Source: Halarcobacter sp. (lineage in GTDB: Bacteria; Campylobacterota; Campylobacteria; Campylobacterales; Arcobacteraceae). From it: a stretch of 64,000 bases of DNA. Positions 5,871-64,000 of the stretch are shown piece by piece; positions within the stretch are counted from its first letter, which is position 1; the number at the start of each line of letters is the position of its first letter. The DNA lies in the NCBI GenBank assembly GCA_048571215.1, contig CP182352.1, positions 1,888,001 through 1,952,000 on the forward strand. The letters run 5' to 3'. Below the pieces are notes generated by a model. That model was given only the letters and a program-made list of their open reading frames with translations. It searched no databases and had not been told where the DNA came from. The translations under genes and the position numbers were made by a program.

Positions 5871-6245
5871 CTATTTATTACACTTTGAATAATAAATATC
5901 ATCCTCTGTACTCTCTTTTTTATCTGCCCCAAAAGAGATAAGTTCAAATGAATCTTCGTTTTGAACATATATAAAATCATTGCCCCATGAATCTTTTGGT
6001 AATTTTCCATCATCAAAATATTTTTTCTCAACTAAAATATTTAAGCCCTCTTCTGTAGTAGGATAGCTTGAATTATCTAATTTATAAAGTTTTAAAGCCT
6101 GACTTACACTTTTCATTTGAACACAAACAATCTTTGCTTTTGCCTCTTCACTCTTACCTGTCAAATTTGGTAAAACAAATGCAGCTAATAAACCTAAAAT
6201 AATAATTACAACCATCAATTCCATCAATGAAAACGCTTTTTTCAA
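5871..6245 (-). CDS. gspG: Major pseudopilin GspG
   Basis: KKA|FSLMELMVVIIILGLLA; ALKLYKLDN..YPT..EGL; PKDSWGNDF; SFGAD. Confidence 0.93.
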   Translation of the reverse strand: MKKAFSLMELMVVIIILGLLAAFVLPNLTGKSEEAKAKIVCVQMKSVSQALKLYKLDNSSYPTTEEGLNILVEKKYFDDGKLPKDSWGNDFIYVQNEDSFELISFGADKKESTEDDIYYSKCNK

Positions 6246-6315
6246 TTCAAATCCTTATAAAAAATAAAAAATATTATATCTAATTTTGATTATATAAAAG
6301 TTACAAAATAGGAAA

Positions 6316-6576
6316 TCACTCTGTATTTTCACTATCTGCTGAATTTTTAAATTTTTCTATTCTTTCTAAAAACTCATCTGACATCTCTTTTGATTTCAAT
6401 AAAAATTCCCTTGAAAAAGAGCATTTTTTTGTATCTGTTTCACTCTCTTTTTGGCACTGTAAAACCTTTTGATTTTCACTGCCATTTTTTTTTAAATTTG
6501 GCAAAATAAATGAAACAATCAAAATCAAAAAAATAATTAAAACCAACCACTCTCTAGTTGAATATGCTTTTTTCAA
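6316..6576 (-). CDS. Small divergent pseudopilin-like protein
   Basis: N-terminus aligns with GspG (KKAYSTREW..ILPNL vs KKAFSLMEL..VLPNL); has a Cys pair. Confidence 0.55.
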   Translation of the reverse strand: MKKAYSTREWLVLIIFLILIVSFILPNLKKNGSENQKVLQCQKESETDTKKCSFSREFLLKSKEMSDEFLERIEKFKNSADSENTE

Positions 6577-6627
6577 ACCAAAATCCTTTAGATAAATTTA
6601 TTAGAATTAAAATTAAAACTAATTTTT

Positions 6628-8535
6628 TTATTTCACAAAAAATCCTTCAATAGATTCTATAGAGATAATATTTGGAATACTCTTACTATCTAGTTCATTT
6701 TGAATTATACTATCACTTGATATAGCTTTATACTCTTGATTTACTGAATCATATTTCCAGATAACTTTTACATTTGGGTTATCTGTGAAAAACTGGTTTA
6801 TATCACTTATTGTTTGTGAACCTATCATATTCCATTGGTTCGGTGTGATTGTTATACTATCTGCTAATCCATCACCTAAGATGTTTACTGATGTATCTTG
6901 TGACACTTTTATCCAATACCCATATCCATCTTCTAAACTTGTTAGTGTATTTGAGTTTGAGTTTACATCCCAATCTTTCCATACTCCATTTTGCAAACCT
7001 TTTATTGTTTGAATATAGCTATTATTTAAACTTGAAATATCTATATTTGAGTTTAATTCCAAGGCTACTAGATTCCATCCTGAGATTAGATTTAAAGTAA
7101 ACACTCTTGAATTAGCATCATTTGCCTTTGTTCCATCTTGATACTCTTCCAAGTTTGTTTTCCCATCACTATCTAGGTCGCCATTTGCATCATTTACTAG
7201 TGGATTTAATCCATTTGCTATTTCGTAACTATCTGAGATAGTATCGTTATCATTATCTTGGTAAATTTCATCTGGAATTCCACCATTGTCTGTATCCAAT
7301 CTTGGATCAACAGCATTATCTGTATTTGCAATTTGCAATATTATTGTTTTGCCATTAGCTAGTCTTATTTCTGTATTTTGTCCTACATTCCCCGTAACAT
7401 TTATTTTTAAAGTATTAGCATCCATCCAATCTATTTCTGGTGTATTTGAACTATAGTAATATGAAGCATCAGTTCTAGAATCATTACAATCAATAGGAGG
7501 GATATATACCATGTAGGTGTTTCCACTGATTATATTAAATGTTTGTGAACTTTGATTTACAATATAATATGGGAAATCTAAAGTTTTTGTATAAAAACTC
7601 CACTCTCTTTCTTTTAATATATTATTTTCTTTATATATAACTTTTGCACTATACTTACTACCATAATCTAATCTTTTCATAGGAAATAGTGCAAAATCTT
7701 TATCTGTAAAATGATTATTTATATCACTACTCTCATCCATGATTGTTGTATTTGTAATCTCATTATTATTTTCATCAAAAAGTTGAAAAGATTCTAAAGA
7801 GATCGTTCCTGTAGTTAAAGGATTAAATTGAATACTAATTGGATTTCCAGTAACACTGCAGCTAGGAAGGGGATCGGGAGATTCTTCAAAGAATGCTGGT
7901 TGAAAATCTATTTGATTTGAATATGGCCAAGTTACAATATCTGGATTTAATAAAATATTTTTATTTTTTATTTGATCATACAAAGAAGCTTCTATTCTAA
8001 ATTTAGTTCTTTCACAAACACCTGTATAATAAGCATTATAACCTAAATAACTAAAATCACCATTGCAAAGAGAATTTATATAAGTATTTCCTAGATTATA
8101 TACATGGGTAAATAAATCTCCATATTCAGTATTTATTGATTGTGCAATCCCTATTTCATTATAAAAAAAATCTAAAAAACCTAGTCTATGGTAAATGGCA
8201 GTAAATAAACCATCAATTGAACTTTCATAATTAGAATATCCCACAGTCATATTTTCAGCTATATATGATTCATAATTAACTGCAAATGCTCTATCCCAAG
8301 GTGTTACACCAGTATATTCTGGATTTGTTGAAGTTTCATAATGACCTTCATATCCATAGGTATAAATATTTGTAGATACATAATTCGCATGATTTTGTGC
8401 AGATTGATTTAAAGTTGTATTTTGAGTATATTGTGTCATACCAACTTTTAAACGCTTATCATTCAAATACTCCAATGGTGTTTGTGCAAATAGTATATTT
8501 ACAAAAAAAATACCTATTAAAAACTTTTTTATCAT
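6628..8535 (-). CDS. Secreted CAP/SCP-domain protein with Asp-rich Ca-binding repeats and C-terminal tandem 'GWNL' domain
   Basis: Signal peptide; CAP motifs LNQSAQNHANY, GHYE, AEN, AIYHRLGFLD, EIGIA; DxDxDG repeats; LNLISGWNLVAL...GYWIKV. Confidence 0.8.
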   Translation of the reverse strand: MIKKFLIGIFFVNILFAQTPLEYLNDKRLKVGMTQYTQNTTLNQSAQNHANYVSTNIYTYGYEGHYETSTNPEYTGVTPWDRAFAVNYESYIAENMTVGYSNYESSIDGLFTAIYHRLGFLDFFYNEIGIAQSINTEYGDLFTHVYNLGNTYINSLCNGDFSYLGYNAYYTGVCERTKFRIEASLYDQIKNKNILLNPDIVTWPYSNQIDFQPAFFEESPDPLPSCSVTGNPISIQFNPLTTGTISLESFQLFDENNNEITNTTIMDESSDINNHFTDKDFALFPMKRLDYGSKYSAKVIYKENNILKEREWSFYTKTLDFPYYIVNQSSQTFNIISGNTYMVYIPPIDCNDSRTDASYYYSSNTPEIDWMDANTLKINVTGNVGQNTEIRLANGKTIILQIANTDNAVDPRLDTDNGGIPDEIYQDNDNDTISDSYEIANGLNPLVNDANGDLDSDGKTNLEEYQDGTKANDANSRVFTLNLISGWNLVALELNSNIDISSLNNSYIQTIKGLQNGVWKDWDVNSNSNTLTSLEDGYGYWIKVSQDTSVNILGDGLADSITITPNQWNMIGSQTISDINQFFTDNPNVKVIWKYDSVNQEYKAISSDSIIQNELDSKSIPNIISIESIEGFFVK

Positions 8536-55834: not shown

Positions 55835-56326
55835 CTAATTAATTAAAAATTGTCCTACTGATCTATCTTTTTTAAGTCTGTTATGCTCTACAACAACCCC
55901 ATGCATTGAGATATAAATTCCAGCTTTAATATCTGCATTTAAAAACCCCAAAGCTTGTGAGAAATTCATAGTTGCTTCAACCTCATCAATACTCATTGGA
56001 ACCATAGCACCAGTGAAAACTATCTTTTTACCTTCGATTTTTTCCTCAAAAAACTTTGAAGTTAAATCAACGGTATCTGTTCCATGTATGATTATGATTT
56101 TATCACTTGTGCTGTTTTTTACCTCATCTAAAATAGTTTGTCTATCATCATCTGTAAAATCCAAACTATCTTTAGAAACTATATTTTTAATATCAAAAGT
56201 TACATTATGACAAGATTTTATTATCTTGTCTAAGGCTATATTATCACTAGGAACTTCAAGTTTCCCTTTGATAGGGTTATATCTTTTATTAAAAGTTCCA
56301 CCAGTATTTAGAACTGTTACGGTCAT
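55835..56326 (-). CDS. Short asparaginase-domain protein
   Basis: TGGT and HGTDT catalytic motifs; TGAMVP; only 163 aa. Confidence 0.85.
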   Translation of the reverse strand: MTVTVLNTGGTFNKRYNPIKGKLEVPSDNIALDKIIKSCHNVTFDIKNIVSKDSLDFTDDDRQTILDEVKNSTSDKIIIIHGTDTVDLTSKFFEEKIEGKKIVFTGAMVPMSIDEVEATMNFSQALGFLNADIKAGIYISMHGVVVEHNRLKKDRSVGQFLIN

Positions 56327-57735
56327 TTAACTTCCTTTATTAGATTATTTACCATGTTTTCAGGTCTTAATAACTCATCTAACTCTTCTTTTGTAAATAG
56401 TTCTTGCTCTAAAATTATATCATATACTCTTTTGTCTGTTTTAAGTGCTTCTTTTGCTAAAGCTGAACTTTTTTCATATCCTAAAATTGGATTTAAACAA
56501 GTTACCAAAGTAACAGAGTTTAAGATATTGTTCATACATACATCTTCATTTGCAGTGATACCTTTTACACATTTTTCACCTAAAGAATAAAATGCTCTTC
56601 TCATCATATTTATTGAAGTAAATAGTTTATATGCAATTAATGGTTCAAATACATTAAGTTGTAATTGTCCACCTTCACTAGCTATAGAAATAGTTGTATC
56701 AGCACCAATTACCTCAAAGGCAACTTGATTTACAACTTCTGGAATTACTGGATTTACTTTTCCAGGCATAATTGAACTTCCAGGTTGCATTGGTGGAAGA
56801 TTTATCTCATTGAACCCTGCCCTTGGACCAGAACTTAAAAGTCTTAAATCATTACAAATCTTTGACATCTTGATTGCAACTCTTTTTAGTATCCCTGAGA
56901 TATGAACAAAAGCACCAGTATCTTGTGTTGCTTCTATTAAATCCCCTGCATTAATATAATCAATTCCAGTAACCTCTCTTAGGTTACTAATAACTTTTCT
57001 TTGATATGCAGGTTTTGAATTTATTCCTGTACCTATTGCAGTTGCACCTAGATTAACCTCTTTTAAAAGTGCTTGGGCGTCTCTTAATCTAAATATATCT
57101 TCATCAATCATAACAGCATAGGTTTTAAACTCTTGACCTAAGGTCATAGGAACAGCATCTTGAAGCTGTGTTCTTCCCATTTTAAGTACATCTTTAAACT
57201 CCACTGCTTTCTCTTCAAAACAATCCCTTAAAAACCGTAAACTATCTTTTAATTTATATATCAATTCATACAGAGTTAATTTTATAGCAGTAGGATATAC
57301 ATCATTTGTAGATTGACTCATATTAATATGGTTATTAGGATGGATAATATCATAAGAACTTCTTGGTTTTCCAAGTATCTCTAAAGCTCTATTTGCAATA
57401 ACTTCATTTGCATTCATATTTGTAGAAGTTCCCGCTCCACCTTGGATTGGATCAACTATAAACTCATCATGAAATTTTCCATCAATTATCTCATTACAAG
57501 CTTGAATTATTGCATCCCTTTGGATATCTGTTAAATCTCCCAATTCATAATTTGTTAAGGCACAAGATTTTTTAACCTTTGCAAGTGATTTAATAAAAGT
57601 TGGAAATAAAGATAAACTAGTATGAGTAATATCAAAATTCTCACTAGCTCTTAAAGTTTGTATCCCATAATAAGCATTACTCTCAATCTCTTTTTCACCC
57701 AAAAAATCTTTTTCAATTCTATATTTCTTTTCCAT
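56323..57735 (-). CDS. aspA: Aspartate ammonia-lyase
   Basis: YYGIQTLRA; QGGAGTSTNMNANEV; QSTNDVYPT; GSSIMPGKVNP. Confidence 0.95.
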   Translation of the reverse strand: MEKKYRIEKDFLGEKEIESNAYYGIQTLRASENFDITHTSLSLFPTFIKSLAKVKKSCALTNYELGDLTDIQRDAIIQACNEIIDGKFHDEFIVDPIQGGAGTSTNMNANEVIANRALEILGKPRSSYDIIHPNNHINMSQSTNDVYPTAIKLTLYELIYKLKDSLRFLRDCFEEKAVEFKDVLKMGRTQLQDAVPMTLGQEFKTYAVMIDEDIFRLRDAQALLKEVNLGATAIGTGINSKPAYQRKVISNLREVTGIDYINAGDLIEATQDTGAFVHISGILKRVAIKMSKICNDLRLLSSGPRAGFNEINLPPMQPGSSIMPGKVNPVIPEVVNQVAFEVIGADTTISIASEGGQLQLNVFEPLIAYKLFTSINMMRRAFYSLGEKCVKGITANEDVCMNNILNSVTLVTCLNPILGYEKSSALAKEALKTDKRVYDIILEQELFTKEELDELLRPENMVNNLIKEVK

Positions 57736-57934: not shown

Positions 57935-57963
57935 TTGACATAGCACTTTTTTTTAGTTAGAAT
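57935..57963 (+). promoter_or_regulatory. sigma70 promoter of the ectoine-catabolism operon
   Basis: TTGACA-N17-TAGAAT. Confidence 0.8.
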
Positions 57964-57993
57964 TTTCTAAAATATACAAAAAGGAGTTAACAT

Positions 57994-58143
57994 ATGTGTT
58001 TTTATAATAATAAACTATTAGACTTAGAATATGTATTTGACTTGCTTATTAAATCAAATGATATGTATATTATTCCACGACCAATAAAACAAATTCAAAA
58101 CTTACTTATCCAAGATAGAAATTTTATTTTAGCTGCCAGGTAG
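57994..58143 (+). CDS. 49-aa upstream ORF, candidate leader peptide
   Basis: AAGGAG-N7-ATG; MCFYNNKLLDLEYVFDLLIKSNDMYIIPRPIKQIQNLLIQDRNFILAAR*. Confidence 0.7.
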   Translation: MCFYNNKLLDLEYVFDLLIKSNDMYIIPRPIKQIQNLLIQDRNFILAAR

Positions 58144-58296
58144 ACCCCACACAATTATCCTTGATTATTTTAATTGTCAAATTAAGTGATAAAATTTATC
58201 CTATATAAATAATTTATATATAAATATTATACTTAATTTAGCGGGTCTTATTTTAAAAATCAAAAAAAAAGTTATATTATTATTTAAGGAAAAAAA

Positions 58297-59541
58297 ATGG
58301 CAAACGAAACAAATATTTTTGAACAACACGAATCTGAAATTAGAGCATATTGTAGAGCAGTACCAACTGTTTTTAAATCTGCTAAAAATGCAGTGATGAT
58401 AGATGAAAACGATGATGATTATATAGATTTTTTTGCTGGAGCTGGAGTTTTAAACTTTGGTCACAACAATCAAAAAATGCAAGATGCAATTATAGAGTTT
58501 ATAAAAAATGATGGTGTAATCCAATCTTTAGATATGTTTACGGATGTAAAAAGAGATTTCATTCAAACTTTTGTAAAAACAATTTTAGAACCAAGAGGAA
58601 TGGGTGATTACAAACTTCAATTTACAGGTCCTACAGGAACAAATGCAGTTGAAGCAGCATTAAAACTAGCTAGAAAAGTTACAGGAAGAACTGAAGTAGT
58701 AGCTTTCCATAGAGGTTTTCATGGTATGACATTAGGAGCATTAGCTTGTACAGCTAATAATGCTTTTAGAAGTAGTTCAGGGGTTCCCTTAAACAATGTG
58801 ATTAGAGGTACATTTAACGATATGCATGCTTTAGAACTTATGAGACAACAAATAGAACATACAGGTTCAGGTCTTACACCTCCTGCTGCATTTTTAGTTG
58901 AACCTTTACAAGCTGAAGGTGGAGTTCATGAGGCTAGTTACGAATGGATTCAAGCTGTTCAAAAATTAGCAAAAGATACAGGTGCACTTTTAATTCTTGA
59001 TGATATTCAAGGAGCAAGTGGAAGAACAGGTAGTTATTTTAGTTTTGATGATATGGATTTAGACCCAGATATTATTGTTCTTGCAAAAGGTCTTGGTGGA
59101 CTTGGTACTCCTATTGGGATGTGCGTAAACAAACCAGAGCATGACAAGGCTTGGGGACCTGGACAACATACAGGTACATTTAGAGGTCAAGGCTTATCTT
59201 ATGTAGCAGGAAAAATTGGAATCGAATTCTTTAAAGATGAAACTTTTAACAATGAAACAAAAAGAAAAGGTGAAATTGTAAGAGCTGTTTTAGATGAACT
59301 TAACAATAAATATTCACAAGTTACTAGTGTAAGACAAAAAGGGATGATGCTAGCAATACAGTTTGATTCTCCTGCAACTGCAAAAGCTATCACAACTAAA
59401 TGTTTTGAAAATAAACTAATCATTGGTGCTTGCAGTACTGGTGAAATTATTAAATTTATTCCACCACTAACTATTGAAGATGAAACTTTAAAAGATGGTC
59501 TAGACAGATTTGTAGCTTCTGTTGAAGCAAGTTTAGGTTAA
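58297..59541 (+). CDS. Diaminobutyrate aminotransferase (EctB-like, class III PLP), probably catabolic here
   Basis: ESEIRAYCR; FFAGAGVLNFGHNN; QFTGPTGTNAVEAALKLARK; DDIQ; WGPGQHTGTFRG. Confidence 0.88.
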   Translation: MANETNIFEQHESEIRAYCRAVPTVFKSAKNAVMIDENDDDYIDFFAGAGVLNFGHNNQKMQDAIIEFIKNDGVIQSLDMFTDVKRDFIQTFVKTILEPRGMGDYKLQFTGPTGTNAVEAALKLARKVTGRTEVVAFHRGFHGMTLGALACTANNAFRSSSGVPLNNVIRGTFNDMHALELMRQQIEHTGSGLTPPAAFLVEPLQAEGGVHEASYEWIQAVQKLAKDTGALLILDDIQGASGRTGSYFSFDDMDLDPDIIVLAKGLGGLGTPIGMCVNKPEHDKAWGPGQHTGTFRGQGLSYVAGKIGIEFFKDETFNNETKRKGEIVRAVLDELNNKYSQVTSVRQKGMMLAIQFDSPATAKAITTKCFENKLIIGACSTGEIIKFIPPLTIEDETLKDGLDRFVASVEASLG

Positions 59542-59550
59542 GGAGTTATT

Positions 59551-60945
59551 ATGGGATACAGTTCAACACACTTTAAATCAATAAATCCATACACTGAAGA
59601 AACAGTGTATGAGATCCCTATGAATACACCTGAAGAGGTAAAGGATATTATTGAAAACTCTCAAAAGGCATATTTAAATACTTGGAGAGATACTTCTTTT
59701 GAACAAAGAGCAGAACTTTTAAGAGCTGTTGCAAAAGAGATGAAAGATAATCTTGATGAATATGCATTACCTATGACAGAAGAGATGGGTAAACCTATAA
59801 ATGAAGCAAGAGGTGAAGTAAATAAAGCGGCTTGGGCTGCTGAACACTATGCCGAAAATGCACAAGAATACTTAAAAACAGAATATATTGATTCTGATGC
59901 AACAGAAAGTTATGTTCAATATTTACCATTAGGTGTAACCTTAGGAGTTCTTCCTTGGAATGCACCTTTTTGGTTGGCTTTTAGATATTTGGCTCCTGCA
60001 CTTATGTCTGGGAATACTTGTATTATGAAACATGATTCCCATACACCATTATGTGCAGTTAAAATCGTACAAGCTTTTGAAAAAGCTGGTATGCCTGCAA
60101 ACGTAGTACAAAATGTTGTGATAAACCACTCTCAAATTGAAGCAATCATTAGACATCCTTTGGTAACAGGAGTTTCTCTAACAGGTTCATCAAAAGCAGG
60201 TGCTGCAATTGGTGGTATTGCAGGAAGTGAAATCAAGCCAGTTGTACTTGAACTTGGGGGTAGTGATCCAGCTATTGTATTAGCTGATACAAAAGATTTA
60301 GAACATGCAGCAGATGTAATTGTATTATCAAGATATATAAATGCTGGTCAATCTTGTATCGCTGCAAAAAGAATCATTGTAGAAGAACCAATTTATGAAG
60401 ATTTTATCACTTTACTAAAAGAGAGATTTGAAAAACTAACTTTAGGTGACCCTAAAGATGAATCAACAAAAATTGGTCCAATAGCTAGACGTGAGTTAGT
60501 TGATGAGATGCATGAGCAAGTTAATAGATCAGTTAGTGCTGGAGCTAGACTGGTTTTAGGTGGTGAGATGCATGAAGGTCAAGGATTTTTCTTTCCAGTA
60601 ACTCTTTTAGCAGATGTAGAACCAGGTATGGTTGTATCTTGTCAAGAAACATTTGGACCAATTGCAGCAGTAATTAAAGCAAAAGATGCAGACCATGCAG
60701 TAAAAATTGCAAATGATACTGAATACGGTTTGGGTGGTTCTGTTTGGACAGGCGATGTTAAAAAAGGTCAAGAGATGGCTAGAAAAATAGTTACGGGACA
60801 AGTATCTATTAATGGAATTGTGAAATCAGACCCAAGACTTCCAAGTGGAGGAGTTAAAAAGTCAGGTTTAGGTAGAGAATTAGGACCTCATGGTATTAAA
60901 ATGTTTGTGAATACTCAACAAGTTTGGGTAGGTCCTGTTAAATAA
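59551..60945 (+). CDS. NAD(P)-dependent semialdehyde dehydrogenase (SSADH-like; DoeC role likely)
   Basis: PWNAP; LELGGSDP; NAGQSCIAAKR; ETFGP. Confidence 0.88.
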   Translation: MGYSSTHFKSINPYTEETVYEIPMNTPEEVKDIIENSQKAYLNTWRDTSFEQRAELLRAVAKEMKDNLDEYALPMTEEMGKPINEARGEVNKAAWAAEHYAENAQEYLKTEYIDSDATESYVQYLPLGVTLGVLPWNAPFWLAFRYLAPALMSGNTCIMKHDSHTPLCAVKIVQAFEKAGMPANVVQNVVINHSQIEAIIRHPLVTGVSLTGSSKAGAAIGGIAGSEIKPVVLELGGSDPAIVLADTKDLEHAADVIVLSRYINAGQSCIAAKRIIVEEPIYEDFITLLKERFEKLTLGDPKDESTKIGPIARRELVDEMHEQVNRSVSAGARLVLGGEMHEGQGFFFPVTLLADVEPGMVVSCQETFGPIAAVIKAKDADHAVKIANDTEYGLGGSVWTGDVKKGQEMARKIVTGQVSINGIVKSDPRLPSGGVKKSGLGRELGPHGIKMFVNTQQVWVGPVK

Positions 60946-60967: not shown

Positions 60968-62152
60968 ATGAAAGCTAAATTGCCTTTTACAAAAAAAGAG
61001 TATATCCAAAGGGTTAGAAAAGTTAAATCGATGATGCAACAAAGAAGAATCGATGTATTAATTGCAACTGATCCAGGAAATATGAACTGGCTTACAGGAT
61101 ATGATGGTTGGTCTTTTTATGTTCATCAAGGGGTTATTATCTCCCTTGATGAAGAGGAACCTATTTGGTTTGGAAGACTTATGGATAAAAATGCAGCCTT
61201 AATAAAATGTTATATGAAAGAGGAAAACCTATATGGTTATCCAGAAAAATATGTACAAAACTTAGATGAACATCCAATGACTTGGATAGGTTTAAATATC
61301 TTTAATAAAAAAGGTTGGACAAAGTGTAATATAGCAACTGAAAGGGATAACTATTATTATTCTGCAGAAGCACACTTTAGACTAATTGCAACTTTACCAA
61401 ATGCAAACTTTATAAATGCAAATAATTTAGTAAATTGGGCTAGAGGAATTAAGTCTAAAAAAGAGATTGAGTATATGAAAATAGCTGGAAAAATCACTCA
61501 AAAAATTCATCAAAGAGTTTTAGATGTAGTTAGAGTTGGTATTCCAAAGAGTCATGTTGTTTCACAAATCTATGAAACTGCAATTGCAGGTGTTGATGGT
61601 TATGGAGGAGATTATCCTTCGATTGTTCCCCTACTTCCATCGGGAGCTGATGCTTCAGCATCTCATATTACTTGGGATGAACGACCTTTTAAAAAGAATG
61701 AGGCAACATATTTTGAGATATCGGGTTGTTATAAAAGATACCATGCTCCAATGTCTAGAACAATTTTTATGGGAAAACCTGAACAAAAATTTTTAGATGC
61801 AGAAAAAGCATTGGTTGAAGCAATTGATGCGGGATTAGAGCAGGCAAAACCAGGTAATAGAACTTGTGATATTGCAAATGCAGTTGATTTGGTTATGAAA
61901 AAATATGGAATAGATAGAAATGATGCCAGATGTGGTTATCCAATAGGGGTAAGTTACCCACCAGATTGGGGGGAAAGAACTTGTAGTTTAAGACCTTCTG
62001 ATTTGACTGTACTTGAACCGGGGATGACTTTTCACTTTATGCCAGGTATTTGGCAAGATAATTGGGGAATGGAGATTACTGAAAGTATTTATATTACAAA
62101 TACTGGGGTTGAAACTTTTTGTGATTTTCCAAGAGAATTATTTATCAAATAG
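60968..62152 (+). CDS. doeA: Ectoine hydrolase (M24 family, DoeA/EutD)
   Basis: NMNWLTGYDGWSFYVHQ; GGDYP.IVPL; GVSYPPDWGERT; GMTFHFMPG. Confidence 0.9.
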   Translation: MKAKLPFTKKEYIQRVRKVKSMMQQRRIDVLIATDPGNMNWLTGYDGWSFYVHQGVIISLDEEEPIWFGRLMDKNAALIKCYMKEENLYGYPEKYVQNLDEHPMTWIGLNIFNKKGWTKCNIATERDNYYYSAEAHFRLIATLPNANFINANNLVNWARGIKSKKEIEYMKIAGKITQKIHQRVLDVVRVGIPKSHVVSQIYETAIAGVDGYGGDYPSIVPLLPSGADASASHITWDERPFKKNEATYFEISGCYKRYHAPMSRTIFMGKPEQKFLDAEKALVEAIDAGLEQAKPGNRTCDIANAVDLVMKKYGIDRNDARCGYPIGVSYPPDWGERTCSLRPSDLTVLEPGMTFHFMPGIWQDNWGMEITESIYITNTGVETFCDFPRELFIK

Positions 62153-62246: not shown

Positions 62247-63254
62247 ATGAGATTATTTAAAGGTTTAGTAATAGCAGGACTTATTACTGTTACAAGTTTA
62301 AGTGCAGCAACGTGGAAATATGCATTTGGGGAGGGTGAAAGTGATCCTCAAGGGATTTATGCAACAGCATTCAAAAATTTTATTGAAGAAAATTCTAGAA
62401 ATAAAATAGAATTATATAAAGTGGGAAGTCTTGGTGAAGAGACTGACTTAATGGAACAAACAAGAGCTGGATTGATCCAATTTTTAGGACAATCAACTGG
62501 ATATATGGGTGGAACTATCCCAGAAATGGATATCTTTACAGTGCCATATGTTATGCCTACAGATACAAAAGAATTAGACTACTTCTTTAAACATTCTAAA
62601 GTTGTTAATGAGATGCTACCAAAAATCTTCCACAAACATGGCTTAGAGTTATTATCAATATTTCCTGAAGGTGAAATGGCAGTTACAACTTTTGAAGAGT
62701 TTCATTCACCTGCAGATTTACAAGGTAAAAAAATGAGAGTTATGCCTGGTTCTCCTATTTTAGTTGAAACATATAAAGCTTTTGGCGCTTCACCACAACC
62801 AATGTCTTGGGGTGATTTAGTAGGTGCTCTTAAAACAGGGATGGTTGATGGACAAGAAAATCCAACTGTATGGATTGAAGCTTATGGTTTAGATAACTTA
62901 ACAAAAGTTCTAACATATACTGGACATGGACACTTCAATGCATCTGTTAGTGCTAATAAAAAGTTTTATGATGGTTTATCAAAAAGAGATAAAAGACTAG
63001 TTCAAAAAGCAGCTGAATTTGCACAGAAAACAATTTTAAGAGAAGCTCAAAAACTTGATGCTTATGGATTAGGAAGAATTATCAGAACTAACCCAACATA
63101 TAAAATTGTTACATTAACTAAAGATGAAAGAAAAGTATTCAAAGAAAAAGCTAAAGCTGTTCAAGAGTCTTTTGCATCTAAAAGTGCATCAAATAAAAAA
63201 ATTATGGATCAAATGATGAAAGATTTATCTGCTGCGGAAACTAATGCTAAATAA
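62247..63254 (+). CDS. TRAP solute-binding protein (DctP; TeaA/UehA-like)
   Basis: Signal peptide; WKYA..E....Q..YA..FK; EQTRAG; PEGEM; DGQENP; next to doeA. Confidence 0.85.
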   Translation: MRLFKGLVIAGLITVTSLSAATWKYAFGEGESDPQGIYATAFKNFIEENSRNKIELYKVGSLGEETDLMEQTRAGLIQFLGQSTGYMGGTIPEMDIFTVPYVMPTDTKELDYFFKHSKVVNEMLPKIFHKHGLELLSIFPEGEMAVTTFEEFHSPADLQGKKMRVMPGSPILVETYKAFGASPQPMSWGDLVGALKTGMVDGQENPTVWIEAYGLDNLTKVLTYTGHGHFNASVSANKKFYDGLSKRDKRLVQKAAEFAQKTILREAQKLDAYGLGRIIRTNPTYKIVTLTKDERKVFKEKAKAVQESFASKSASNKKIMDQMMKDLSAAETNAK

Positions 63255-63265
63255 TCTTTTTTAAT

Positions 63266-63324
63266 TATAGTAATCCACTTTATGTGGATTTACTATAGTA
63301 GATTATAGGTTCTGTAATCTACTA
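63266..63324 (+). other. Two tandem stem-loops between the binding-protein and permease genes
   Basis: TATAGTAATCCAC-tttat-GTGGATTTACTATA followed by TAGTAGATTA..TAATCTACTA. Confidence 0.55.
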
Positions 63325-63342
63325 TGGTAAAAGGAATATGAT

Positions 63343-63915
63343 ATGAATGAAAACACAAAAAAAAATCCTTTATTAAGAGCTTTAGATACCCTAGATAGTA
63401 TTTTAAGTAAGTTCGAAGGGGTGATGTTAGCCTTAGGTGTTATAGCAATGGCAGTTACTACAATTGCAGCTGTGATTTCAAGATTTGTTTTTAATGATGC
63501 CTTAACAGTTACAGATGAGCTCAATATGATTTTTATTGTAGTTGTAACTTTTGCAGGTTTAAGTTATGCCGCAAGAAATGGAAGACATATTCGAATGTCA
63601 GCTATATATGATGCCATGCCAACAAAAATGAGAAAAGTTATAATGATATGTATCTCTTTTATCACTTCTATGTTTATGTTTTTATTAGCTAAATACTCTT
63701 TTGGTTATATTGTAGAAGTTTACCAAAGTGGTAGAATTCTTCCAGCTATTGGTATTCCTGTTTTTTATGTTTACATATGGGTTCCTGTGGGATTTACGGT
63801 TACAGGCTTACAATACTTTTTTACTGTAATTAAAAATATAAGTGAATCGGATGTATATCTATCTACTACTGTAAGAGATGGTTATAGTGATTCTAAAAAT
63901 GATATTGAAGTATAA
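63343..63915 (+). CDS. TRAP small permease (DctQ; TeaB-like)
   Basis: Four TMs; YAARNGRHIRMSAIYD. Confidence 0.9.
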   Translation: MNENTKKNPLLRALDTLDSILSKFEGVMLALGVIAMAVTTIAAVISRFVFNDALTVTDELNMIFIVVVTFAGLSYAARNGRHIRMSAIYDAMPTKMRKVIMICISFITSMFMFLLAKYSFGYIVEVYQSGRILPAIGIPVFYVYIWVPVGFTVTGLQYFFTVIKNISESDVYLSTTVRDGYSDSKNDIEV

Positions 63916-63924
63916 GGAAGAGCT

Positions 63925-64000
63925 ATGAAACCTAATTTAAAACAAATATTTATTTTACTTTTTTTAATACTAAGTTTTACAATCCCAAGTTTTGCTAAGG
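63925..64000 (+). CDS. Start of next gene (signal-peptide-like N-terminus), truncated by window end
   Basis: AAGGA RBS; MKPNLKQIFILLFLILSFTIPSFAK. Confidence 0.6.
   Translation, partial: MKPNLKQIFILLFLILSFTIPSFAK

Follow-up and report, generated by a model that had tools for sequence, protein, structure and literature searches.

The predicted operon for ectoine breakdown in Halarcobacter sp. appears to be headed by a short leader element, which consists of a 49-codon open reading frame (ORF) and an RNA structure overlapping its stop codon. The element lies in the stretch of 64,000 nucleotides analysed here (contig CP182352.1, positions 1,888,001 to 1,952,000), called the window, and coordinates without a prefix count from its first letter. 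Comparisons across the Arcobacteraceae indicate that the leader is a real element, beyond chance and under selection. Summed over all leader-based readings, it is very probably a cis-acting regulatory element; summed over the ways in which an arrest could be read out, it is probably a metabolite-sensing arrest peptide. The most specific form of this reading, a ligand-dependent arrest peptide that attenuates transcription of the operon, probably through Rho, is given about an even chance. The initial annotation had proposed an ectoine- or diaminobutyrate-responsive leader peptide. Conservation and linkage to the catabolic module speak for its regulatory part, whereas ectoine and diaminobutyrate (DABA) have become doubtful as ligands.

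The leader and its operon

The genome consists of a complete 3.6-Mb chromosome with 28.5% GC. Upstream of the leader lies a promoter-like site of the sigma-70 type, TTGACA-17-TAGAAT (57935..57963, forward strand), which matches the consensus at 11 of 12 positions and corresponds to the near-consensus promoter reported initially. It is the top scorer among 16 promoter-like sites in a 1.2-kb scan, although the number of sites is by itself a modest signal, as shuffled sequence contains 8.1 +/- 3.0 of them. The ribosome-binding site AAGGAG (57981..57986, forward strand), assigned from the sequence, precedes the leader ORF (57994..58143, forward strand). This ORF starts with ATG at 57994, encodes a predicted arrest peptide of 49 amino acids ending in RNFILAAR with AGG as its final codon, and stops with TAG at 58141-58143, all of it as initially described. 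Directly after the stop codon, at 58144, starts the C-rich tract ACCCCACACAATTATCC, and 153 nt separate the stop from the ATG of the aminotransferase gene at 58297. The impression that no obvious intrinsic terminator precedes this gene agrees with a terminator scan of the leader region, which returned no canonical terminator.

Such an arrangement is rare in this genome. When an ORF of 30-60 codons with a Shine-Dalgarno (SD) sequence and an ATG was required to end 80-180 nt 5' of a long gene, only four of 555 AT-rich upstream regions showed a comparable ORF, this locus among them. The signals for expression recur in the homologous leaders. A TTG-type -35 box, a spacer of 17-18 nt and a TAnnnT box, 28-45 nt 5' of the leader ATG, form the top site in 18 of 20, and the other two (L012 and L014) have TTGACT-17-TACCAT, found by eye. 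A purine SD core lies at most 16 nt from the ATG in all 20. Elsewhere on the chromosome, at C1:926894 (forward strand), a lysine-rich 33-codon ORF with an SD sequence stands 5' of a long gene and possibly encodes a small basic protein.

The first gene of the operon (58297..59541, forward strand) had simply been called the aminotransferase; it is better described as an EctB-type diaminobutyrate aminotransferase paralogue (PRK09264, 550 bits, cut-off 438); the biosynthetic ectB lies elsewhere in the genome. There, a second EctB-type enzyme, 47% identical, is part of a separate ectABC cluster (C1:1277325-1278605). The paralogue is predicted to work catabolically, in the role of DoeD, the direction of its reaction being read from the gene context. 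It is followed on the same strand by a semialdehyde dehydrogenase with a predicted DoeC role (59551..60945; best matches to SSADH-like families, below their cut-offs), a DoeA/EutD ectoine hydrolase homologue (60968..62152; TIGR02993, E 2e-177, 590 bits, just below the cut-off of 613) and, by domain matches, a TRAP transporter comprising a binding protein, a small subunit and the start of the large subunit (62247..64000). Beyond the window, the operon continues with UspA-like, Zn-dehydrogenase, proline-racemase-family, M20 amidohydrolase and membrane protein genes, whose Pfam names are taken from the L069 orthologues; the UspA-like gene presumably merits the label UspA/TeaD. The Zn-dependent dehydrogenase and proline-racemase-family genes (window-relative 66332-68516) are part of many of these operons and may handle hydroxyectoine in place of EutABC.

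Together, the hydrolase, aminotransferase and dehydrogenase form the set found in doe/eut operons, from which an ectoine-catabolic role of the operon can soundly be inferred. Of 29 relatives, 24 match DoeA with E values no worse than 1e-172, all slightly below the TIGR02993 cut-off. On the other side of the leader, the aspartase gene aspA (56323..57735, reverse strand; domain match) runs divergently, as it does beside the leader in L068, L071, L073, L075 and L076, and its product is a plausible sink for the aspartate end product. After aspA comes an asparaginase-like gene of 163 codons (55835-56326, reverse strand), which accompanies it in several relatives.

The doeBDAC-type clusters of Methylomicrobium alcaliphilum, like the doe genes of Halomonas and the eut genes of Ruegeria, likewise place a hydrolase, a deacetylase, an aminotransferase and a dehydrogenase in an ectoine producer. 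The Halarcobacter operon differs from these models by an EctB-type aminotransferase instead of DoeD, an M20 amidohydrolase as presumed deacetylase instead of EutE/DoeB, and the leader peptide at its head. No regulator gene belongs to the methylotroph doeBDAC cluster, according to the accessible part of its description (PMC7192451). Several gammaproteobacterial loci (L092, L093, L094, L095, L099, L100 and L101) combine genes for an M20 protein, an EctB-like aminotransferase, a distant DoeA-like protein (27-30%) and an aldehyde dehydrogenase in an order that matches doeBDAC of methylotrophs. In three of them (L092, L094 and L099), a search for the leader RNA gave no match.

The regulators usually associated with this pathway, namely EnuR (MocR/GabR), AsnC/DoeX and the candidate PucR, are DNA-binding proteins, and none is encoded in or near the leader-bearing operons. 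That no EnuR- or AsnC-type regulator was visible in the window had been pointed out before, and the whole genome agrees: it contains no match to the AsnC domain, and its only two GntR domains belong to ORFs of 238 and 224 amino acids, far from the operon and too short for EnuR. None of 25 relatives has a GntR match at the operon, and in the leader-carrying genomes G045, G049 and G153 no GntR protein of MocR size was found. Rho is encoded (TIGR00767, 665 bits, above the cut-off). Ectoine synthase is encoded in this genome and in all 25 of the relatives with DoeA.

Conservation of the peptide and of the predicted junction at its stop codon

The leader was followed through 184 Arcobacteraceae genomes, 29 of which carry the catabolic aminotransferase paralogue at an identity of at least 66%. 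At 19 of these 29 loci, an intact leader lies 94-153 nt upstream of the gene. The named relatives belong to Arcobacter and Halarcobacter. The peptide measures 49-51 amino acids in 18 of the 19 homologues and 34 in the remaining one (L021). In the alignments, the N-terminal half is variable and the tail almost fixed. This stop-anchored tail (58081..58140, forward strand) follows the consensus P-I-K-x-I-Q-N-L-L-I-Q-[DE]-K-N-F-I-x-x-A-[RIS]; K32, I34, L38, Q40 and I45 are invariant, and the same five columns hold across 31 aligned sequences.

The check proposed along with the initial annotation, C-terminal conservation combined with dN/dS, points in the same direction. Pooled pairwise Nei-Gojobori estimates from 18 sequences (L021 excluded), with pairs that depend on one another and synonymous sites close to saturation, give a dN/dS of 0.17 for the final 21 codons, 0.57 for the N-terminal half, and 0.88 and 3.0 for the shifted frames. 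Within four close groups, the values are 0.08, 0.09, 0.09 and 0.38 for the tail and 0.21-0.44 for the N-terminal half, indicating some constraint there as well. Purifying selection on the leader peptide thus appears clearly frame-specific. The initial reading of a metabolite-sensing leader peptide was said to fail if the ORF were not conserved; the peptide proves to be conserved under purifying selection, and the reading is not refuted on this count.

The nucleotides around the stop codon are conserved as well. In 18 of 19 loci, the codon before the last is GCC, a rare one that accounts for 7% of alanine codons genome-wide and 2% in the ORFs of the ribosomal protein cluster. No tRNA-Ala(GGC), the G-anticodon tRNA for GCC, was found in the genome. 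The final AGG codon, to which attention had been drawn initially, is not conserved (7 of 19 loci), as opposed to the rare GCC before it; the last residue is R in 13 loci, I in four and S in two. The stop codon is TAG in 18 of 19 loci.

Searches for relatives of the peptide led to no characterised family. A profile search finds 26 database proteins, all unnamed or "hypothetical", such as Arnit_1224 of Arcobacter nitrofigilis DSM 7299. Among 1.84 billion proteins there were eight matches, made up of six known members, a divergent protein of 48 amino acids (P0027) and a repetitive false match of 360 amino acids. SpeFL and TnaC entries should be present in the PDB and NCBIfam libraries searched. 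Comparison of the peptide with NCBIfam (19 members), Pfam and PDB chains (E up to 10) gave no relevant match, and the top matches in the ESM Atlas were unnamed clusters at 0.93 that share no common family. Within the genome itself, no paralogue of the leader was detected, whether with the peptide profile, through the architecture of its motifs or with an RNA model.

The peptide profile returned 28 matches from the 184 genomes: the 19 intact leaders, a broken copy in G156 and eight weak matches (E 1e-4 to 8e-3). The weak ones were discarded, six because they contain stop codons and two because they lie in frames of 600 amino acids. No credible copy was found by this search in the 155 genomes of the family that do not have the aminotransferase paralogue. 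Each of the 18 relatives that carry an intact leader matches both DoeA and EctC over the full length. In this sample, the leader is thereby shown to be strictly linked to the aminotransferase-dehydrogenase-hydrolase module. In G156, the leader is frameshifted and its P1 motif (see below) is gone, the aminotransferase gene is frameshifted and doeA is truncated; judging from these lesions, the leader element and the operon have decayed together.

The spacer of about 150 nt behind the ORF, for which no structure had been noted, is predicted to fold into a three-way junction at 58142-58248 (-22.3 kcal/mol, z -4.2), and none of 200 shuffled sequences was equally stable. Taken over its full 170 nt, the spacer is not more stably folded than shuffled sequence (z -1.0), so that the fold signal is confined to the element between the stop codon and the end of stem P1. 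This element folds better than shuffles in 18 of 19 loci, with z values from -2.7 to -9.6. The 5' strand of P1, AGACCC (58142..58147, forward strand), overlaps the TAG and starts the C-rich tract, and TAGACCC is invariant in 18 of 18 loci; taken together, the stop-flanking nucleotides read CA.TAGACCC without exception in the 18 aligned loci. The 3' strand, GGGUCU (58243..58248, forward strand), with GGGTC equally invariant (18 of 18), leads into a pyrimidine-rich tail. It lies 42-50 nt from the aminotransferase ATG in all 18 loci.

P1 encloses two further predicted hairpins. P2 (58151..58177, forward strand), identified by folding and pairing tests, has a CAAUU/AAUUG core, and its anchored pairs differ between groups (U-A to C-G, A-U to U-A). 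When arms were swapped among 17 loci, own arms formed 8.5 of 11 Watson-Crick pairs compared with 7.3 for arms of other groups. P3 (58179..58239, forward strand), based on the fold and the swap test, varies in length and sequence, and its own-arm duplexes average -10.9 kcal/mol compared with -4.9 kcal/mol for between-group arms in the same 17 loci. In P1, none of the five pairs covaries within the Arcobacteraceae, which reflects either sequence constraint or too little divergence. RNAalifold recovered only P1 from a MAFFT alignment, because P2 and P3 vary in length. The nucleotides of the junction and the loops are not conserved. In G045, the peptide is kept and the 3' half of the junction is lost.

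The C-rich, G-poor tract of the initial annotation is present, but it is the 5' strand of the junction, and its post-stop part is predicted to be base-paired once P1 forms. In all 19 loci, C outnumbers G both in the final 21 codons and across the first 23 nt counted from the stop. The synonymous C excess has a mean z of 1.5 without the last two codons and of 1.0 relative to ribosomal protein usage, in sequences that are not independent, and the evidence for a rut site at the leader end is weak.

Proposed mechanism, possible ligands and competing explanations

In the favoured scheme, a ribosome would trail RNA polymerase through the leader. Without ligand, it would terminate and depart, leaving the ACCC tract exposed together with the C-enriched 3' end of the ORF; the P2/P3/P1 junction would pause the polymerase, and Rho would end the transcript before the aminotransferase gene. 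With ligand, the tail of the peptide would arrest the ribosome at or just before the TAG, assisted by the slow GCC codon. The arrested ribosome would cover the C-rich tract and the 5' strand of P1, and transcription would read through. Since about 95 nt more have to be transcribed before the partner strand of P1 exists, normal termination would not suffice; the stall would have to be long-lived. Rho-dependent attenuation is the single likeliest mode of read-out, with roughly the same even chance as the scheme itself.

Two features by which arrest peptides are recognised are present, namely an ORF with a ribosome-binding site directly upstream of the regulated gene and conservation concentrated in a C-terminal segment of tunnel length. 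A conserved tail of about 20 residues, the length seated in the exit tunnel, a stop codon set into the strand of a helix and a position 5' of a catabolic operon that has no protein regulator together match the anatomy of TnaC and SpeFL. However, the peptide (49-51 amino acids) is longer than TnaC (24) or SpeFL (34), and its last residue varies.

TnaC and SpeFL are structurally solved arrest peptides that sense metabolites, as far as the accessible text of the two reports goes (PMC8429421; 10.1101/604074). SpeFL (orf34), which precedes speF-potE in gamma-proteobacteria, is also a short upstream ORF and ends in Ala-Arg-UAG, as the present leader ends in A-R-TAG; both have an RNA hairpin at the end of the ORF and a gene of amino-acid-derivative metabolism downstream. 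The parts of the SpeFL report available describe a hairpin encompassing the ORF's 3' end, an arrest on the last two codons that masks a rut site, Rho termination just downstream and no response to DABA (10.1101/604074). The ornithine-sensor motif HIRRXXH given in the same part of that report is absent from 31 of 31 aligned leader peptides. The leader further differs from SpeFL in having no Phe-rich effector core, in its length (49-51 versus 34 amino acids), in the three-way junction starting from the stop codon, in the position of its rare codon (penultimate, as opposed to codons 12-13) and in phylum and pathway.

TnaC resembles the leader in its place 5' of an operon for a catabolic enzyme and an importer (tnaCAB) and in the C-rich tract right after the stop codon. 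The accessible account of TnaC puts the rut site immediately after the stop codon, and in both systems induction by the substrate is the logic to be expected (PMC8429421). The TnaC pattern of Trp12, Asp16 and Pro24 followed by UGA was not found, as the 19 aligned members contain no Trp and end in R, I or S, with TAG as the stop in 18 of them. The stop codon is UAG rather than UGA, the peptide is twice as long, and base pairing is predicted here for the post-stop tract. By its sequence, the leader is a member of neither the TnaC nor the SpeFL family, with what looks like a functional likeness to both. PepNL and NanCL of E. coli, likened here by description, are upstream ORFs with stem-loops near the stop codon that affect a downstream catabolic gene; PepNL, according to the portion of its report at hand, needs no inducer for its arrest, which read-through of the stop codon relieves (PMC11890864).

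The regulators of ectoine catabolism have to distinguish ectoine as food from ectoine as osmolyte, a problem raised in the accessible parts of two papers (PMC8739950; PMC13188858). EnuR senses alpha-ADABA and so tells breakdown from synthesis, as described in the available section of the first of them (PMC8739950). The same reasoning, which is not a result, tentatively places N-alpha-acetyl-diaminobutyrate first among the possible ligands of the leader peptide, because it is a product of catabolism only, in bacteria that encode ectoine synthesis as well. While ectoine is being made, it would be accompanied by DABA and the gamma-acetyl isomer. As carriers of ectoine synthase would make both ectoine and DABA under salt stress, these two are doubtful ligands. 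Ectoine or hydroxyectoine is accordingly a less probable choice, some other compound is given the same low weight, and DABA is the least likely.

The peptide might also arrest in the same manner while the junction itself is a branched, weak intrinsic terminator, perhaps NusA-assisted, with P1 blocked by the ribosome at the stop codon and Rho unneeded. The Rho version and this one alike predict induction on stalling. P1 is G-C rich and invariant and begins within the stop codon, with pyrimidines behind it in every case; the constant 42-50 nt to the next gene fits as well, and L001, L007 and L008 have six or seven T in the next 8 nt. Over all loci, however, these 8 nt hold between one and seven T, with no consistent U-tract: at least five T occur in just six of 18, several loci read ATTCCA or ACTCCA, and the likely distant homologue in G341 (see below) has none. 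A stem of 5-6 bp enclosing about 95 nt would also be atypical, and the terminator scan found nothing. The Rho version is favoured because the tail after P1 often has no U-tract, and a branched terminator is regarded as a minor possibility.

Another reading keeps translation-coupled attenuation but lets it sense a physiological state rather than a metabolite, so that ectoine recycling would be switched on as salt stress ends. For instance, the state could be ionic strength or an osmotic downshift, sluggish reading of the terminal GCC codon, or a pull exerted outside the tunnel on the amphipathic N-terminal half; jointly, these variants are considered unlikely. They draw on the ectoine synthase encoded by every carrier tested, the leader of the importer-less operons, the rare GCC codon with no tRNA-Ala(GGC) found, and the conserved length and partial constraint of the N-terminal half (dN/dS 0.21-0.44 within groups). 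Yet the residue-specific conservation of a tunnel-length tail suits a binding pocket, a run of regulatory codons is missing, and the natural 34-amino-acid variant L021 dispenses with much of the N-terminal half.

The peptide is improbable as a small trans-acting protein, a partner of an enzyme or transporter, beside which the RNA structure would be a separate stability or processing element. AlphaFold models the peptide as two helices with a pLDDT of 81, a model that is silent on its conformation in the tunnel, and both the conserved length and some selection on the N-terminal half would fit a free protein. The pTM is just 0.37, however, and the conservation is anchored at the stop codon, where it reaches into the nucleotides (GCCA.TAGACCC). 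A 19-residue window reaches a mean hydropathy of 1.6 in just three of 31 members and 0.72 here. The leader is retained in operons without TRAP genes (L070, L071 and L078), so it is not a transporter subunit, and the search for it came up empty in five enzyme clusters that look complete.

Less probable still is a switch acting on translation initiation, in which the freed 3' strand of P1 alters pairing to the ribosome-binding site of the aminotransferase gene. For L001, L005, L016 and L017, the prediction is that this strand pairs with the SD sequence and that accessibility falls to 0.01-0.08, but the direction is inconsistent: accessibility goes up in L002 and L021 and hardly changes in many others. 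An RNA-only riboswitch aptamer with an incidental ORF, or a chance ORF, is very improbable and already largely excluded, since the strong predicted folding is set against a variable junction and loops, no Rfam match better than E 0.49 and frame-specific purifying selection on the peptide.

A ligand-dependent arrest peptide would carry some weight beyond this operon, as the bacterial arrest peptides known to respond to a metabolite of the cell are few. If the reading is true, a family unrelated in sequence shows a further mode of small-molecule binding by the exit tunnel, and it explains how ectoine producers without EnuR spare their own osmolyte, storing ectoine and still being able to eat it. 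Possibly, though at somewhat less than an even chance, the leader is the first arrest peptide that responds to a product of ectoine breakdown, as well as the first one from the Campylobacterota, an independent family that replaces EnuR and whose junction serves as a delay timer at the stop codon. It could also yield a genetically encoded sensor of ectoine-pathway metabolites.

The leader element is apparently undescribed so far. In an incomplete coverage of the literature, which leaves an earlier mention possible, no leader-peptide or ribosome-stalling control of ectoine catabolism was found, and the literature searched held nothing on leader-peptide attenuation in Arcobacter or on diaminobutyrate-linked, Rho-dependent leader peptides. 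The main text of a 2026 survey of ectoine catabolism contains no Arcobacter, Campylobacter, leader or attenuation. The accessible parts of Stav et al., a match for Arcobacter and upstream ORFs, name neither ectoine nor diaminobutyrate, text supplements included. For arrest peptides in Campylobacterota, the search led to a paper on RAPP motifs, and the match for Arcobacter ectoine catabolism concerned another species, as far as the available portions of these sources go. Its small size, the natural variants in which it is lost or decayed and its presence in the cultured A. nitrofigilis DSM 7299 (Arnit_1224) make the leader directly testable.

Losses, a likely distant homologue and natural variants

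The five clusters in which the leader was not found are rearranged operons (G056, G060 and G148-G150); in G056, the start of the operon lies off the contig. In the aminotransferase tree, leader-less loci are nested in leader-bearing clades, which is compatible with losses. The leader-less rearranged operons have a different promoter-like element in common, TTGTA..-N-TATGATACAAT, roughly an inverted repeat, 5' of teaA and the M20 gene. It occurs at L063:12412-12500 and L063:6170-6290 (both reverse strand), L064:10840-10916, L065:11360-11437, L066:11040-11114 and L062:5480-5548, and is possibly a second regulatory solution that uses a DNA-binding protein. Four small genomes (G061-G064, loci L025-L028) contain a lone aminotransferase of the catabolic type with no match to doeA or ectC, and the enzyme may serve another pathway there.

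Split genes occur in two genomes: in G089, the dehydrogenase and M20 genes (L078:3603-4932 and 6232-7388), and in G045, the genome that lost the RNA junction, the large TRAP subunit (L074:8425-10203). These frameshifts may be assembly errors or decay.

Outside the Arcobacteraceae, the catabolic module was found in one of 378 sampled genomes and in one of 61 of that genome's family. Aminotransferases 73-75% identical to the Arcobacteraceae gene are encoded at L088 (Desulfuromonadaceae), together with the dehydrogenase, and on a contig labelled Mariniphaga (L089), which additionally has doeA and the M20 gene. Neither locus gave a match to the leader RNA, and horizontal transfer or misbinning is possible.

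A likely homologue of the Arcobacteraceae leader, judged by its ORF and junction, is present in G341, a genome of the Sulfurospirillaceae. The aminotransferase gene lies inside its cluster there, yet it has its own promoter-like site and a 52-codon ORF on its 5' side. A K-x-I-x-x-I-x-x-Q-x-K motif in this ORF is in register with the Arcobacteraceae tail. The same junction follows, with a CAAU/AUUG core in P2, ACUC/GAGU replacing ACCC/GGGU and 46 nt to the ATG. The C-G to U-A change in P1 is compensatory but comes from a single sequence; the covariation score including G341 was reached by 15 of 500 shuffles, and slid controls were equally high. The ORF is matched by hhalign at E 0.003 with a probability of 9.8% and by BLASTP to the 34-amino-acid L021 peptide at E 2e-6, and it ranks second, not first, by profile among 155 local small ORFs. 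At the DNA level, the alignment is not above background (54/555).

The stop codon of the G341 leader comes three codons later than usual. This ORF (L109:7142-7300) and P0023 extend three to five codons beyond the usual stop, into the P1 strand, and the peptide of P0020 is a natural C-terminal variant that ends in LAPK. These three C-terminal variants are useful for locating the stall site.
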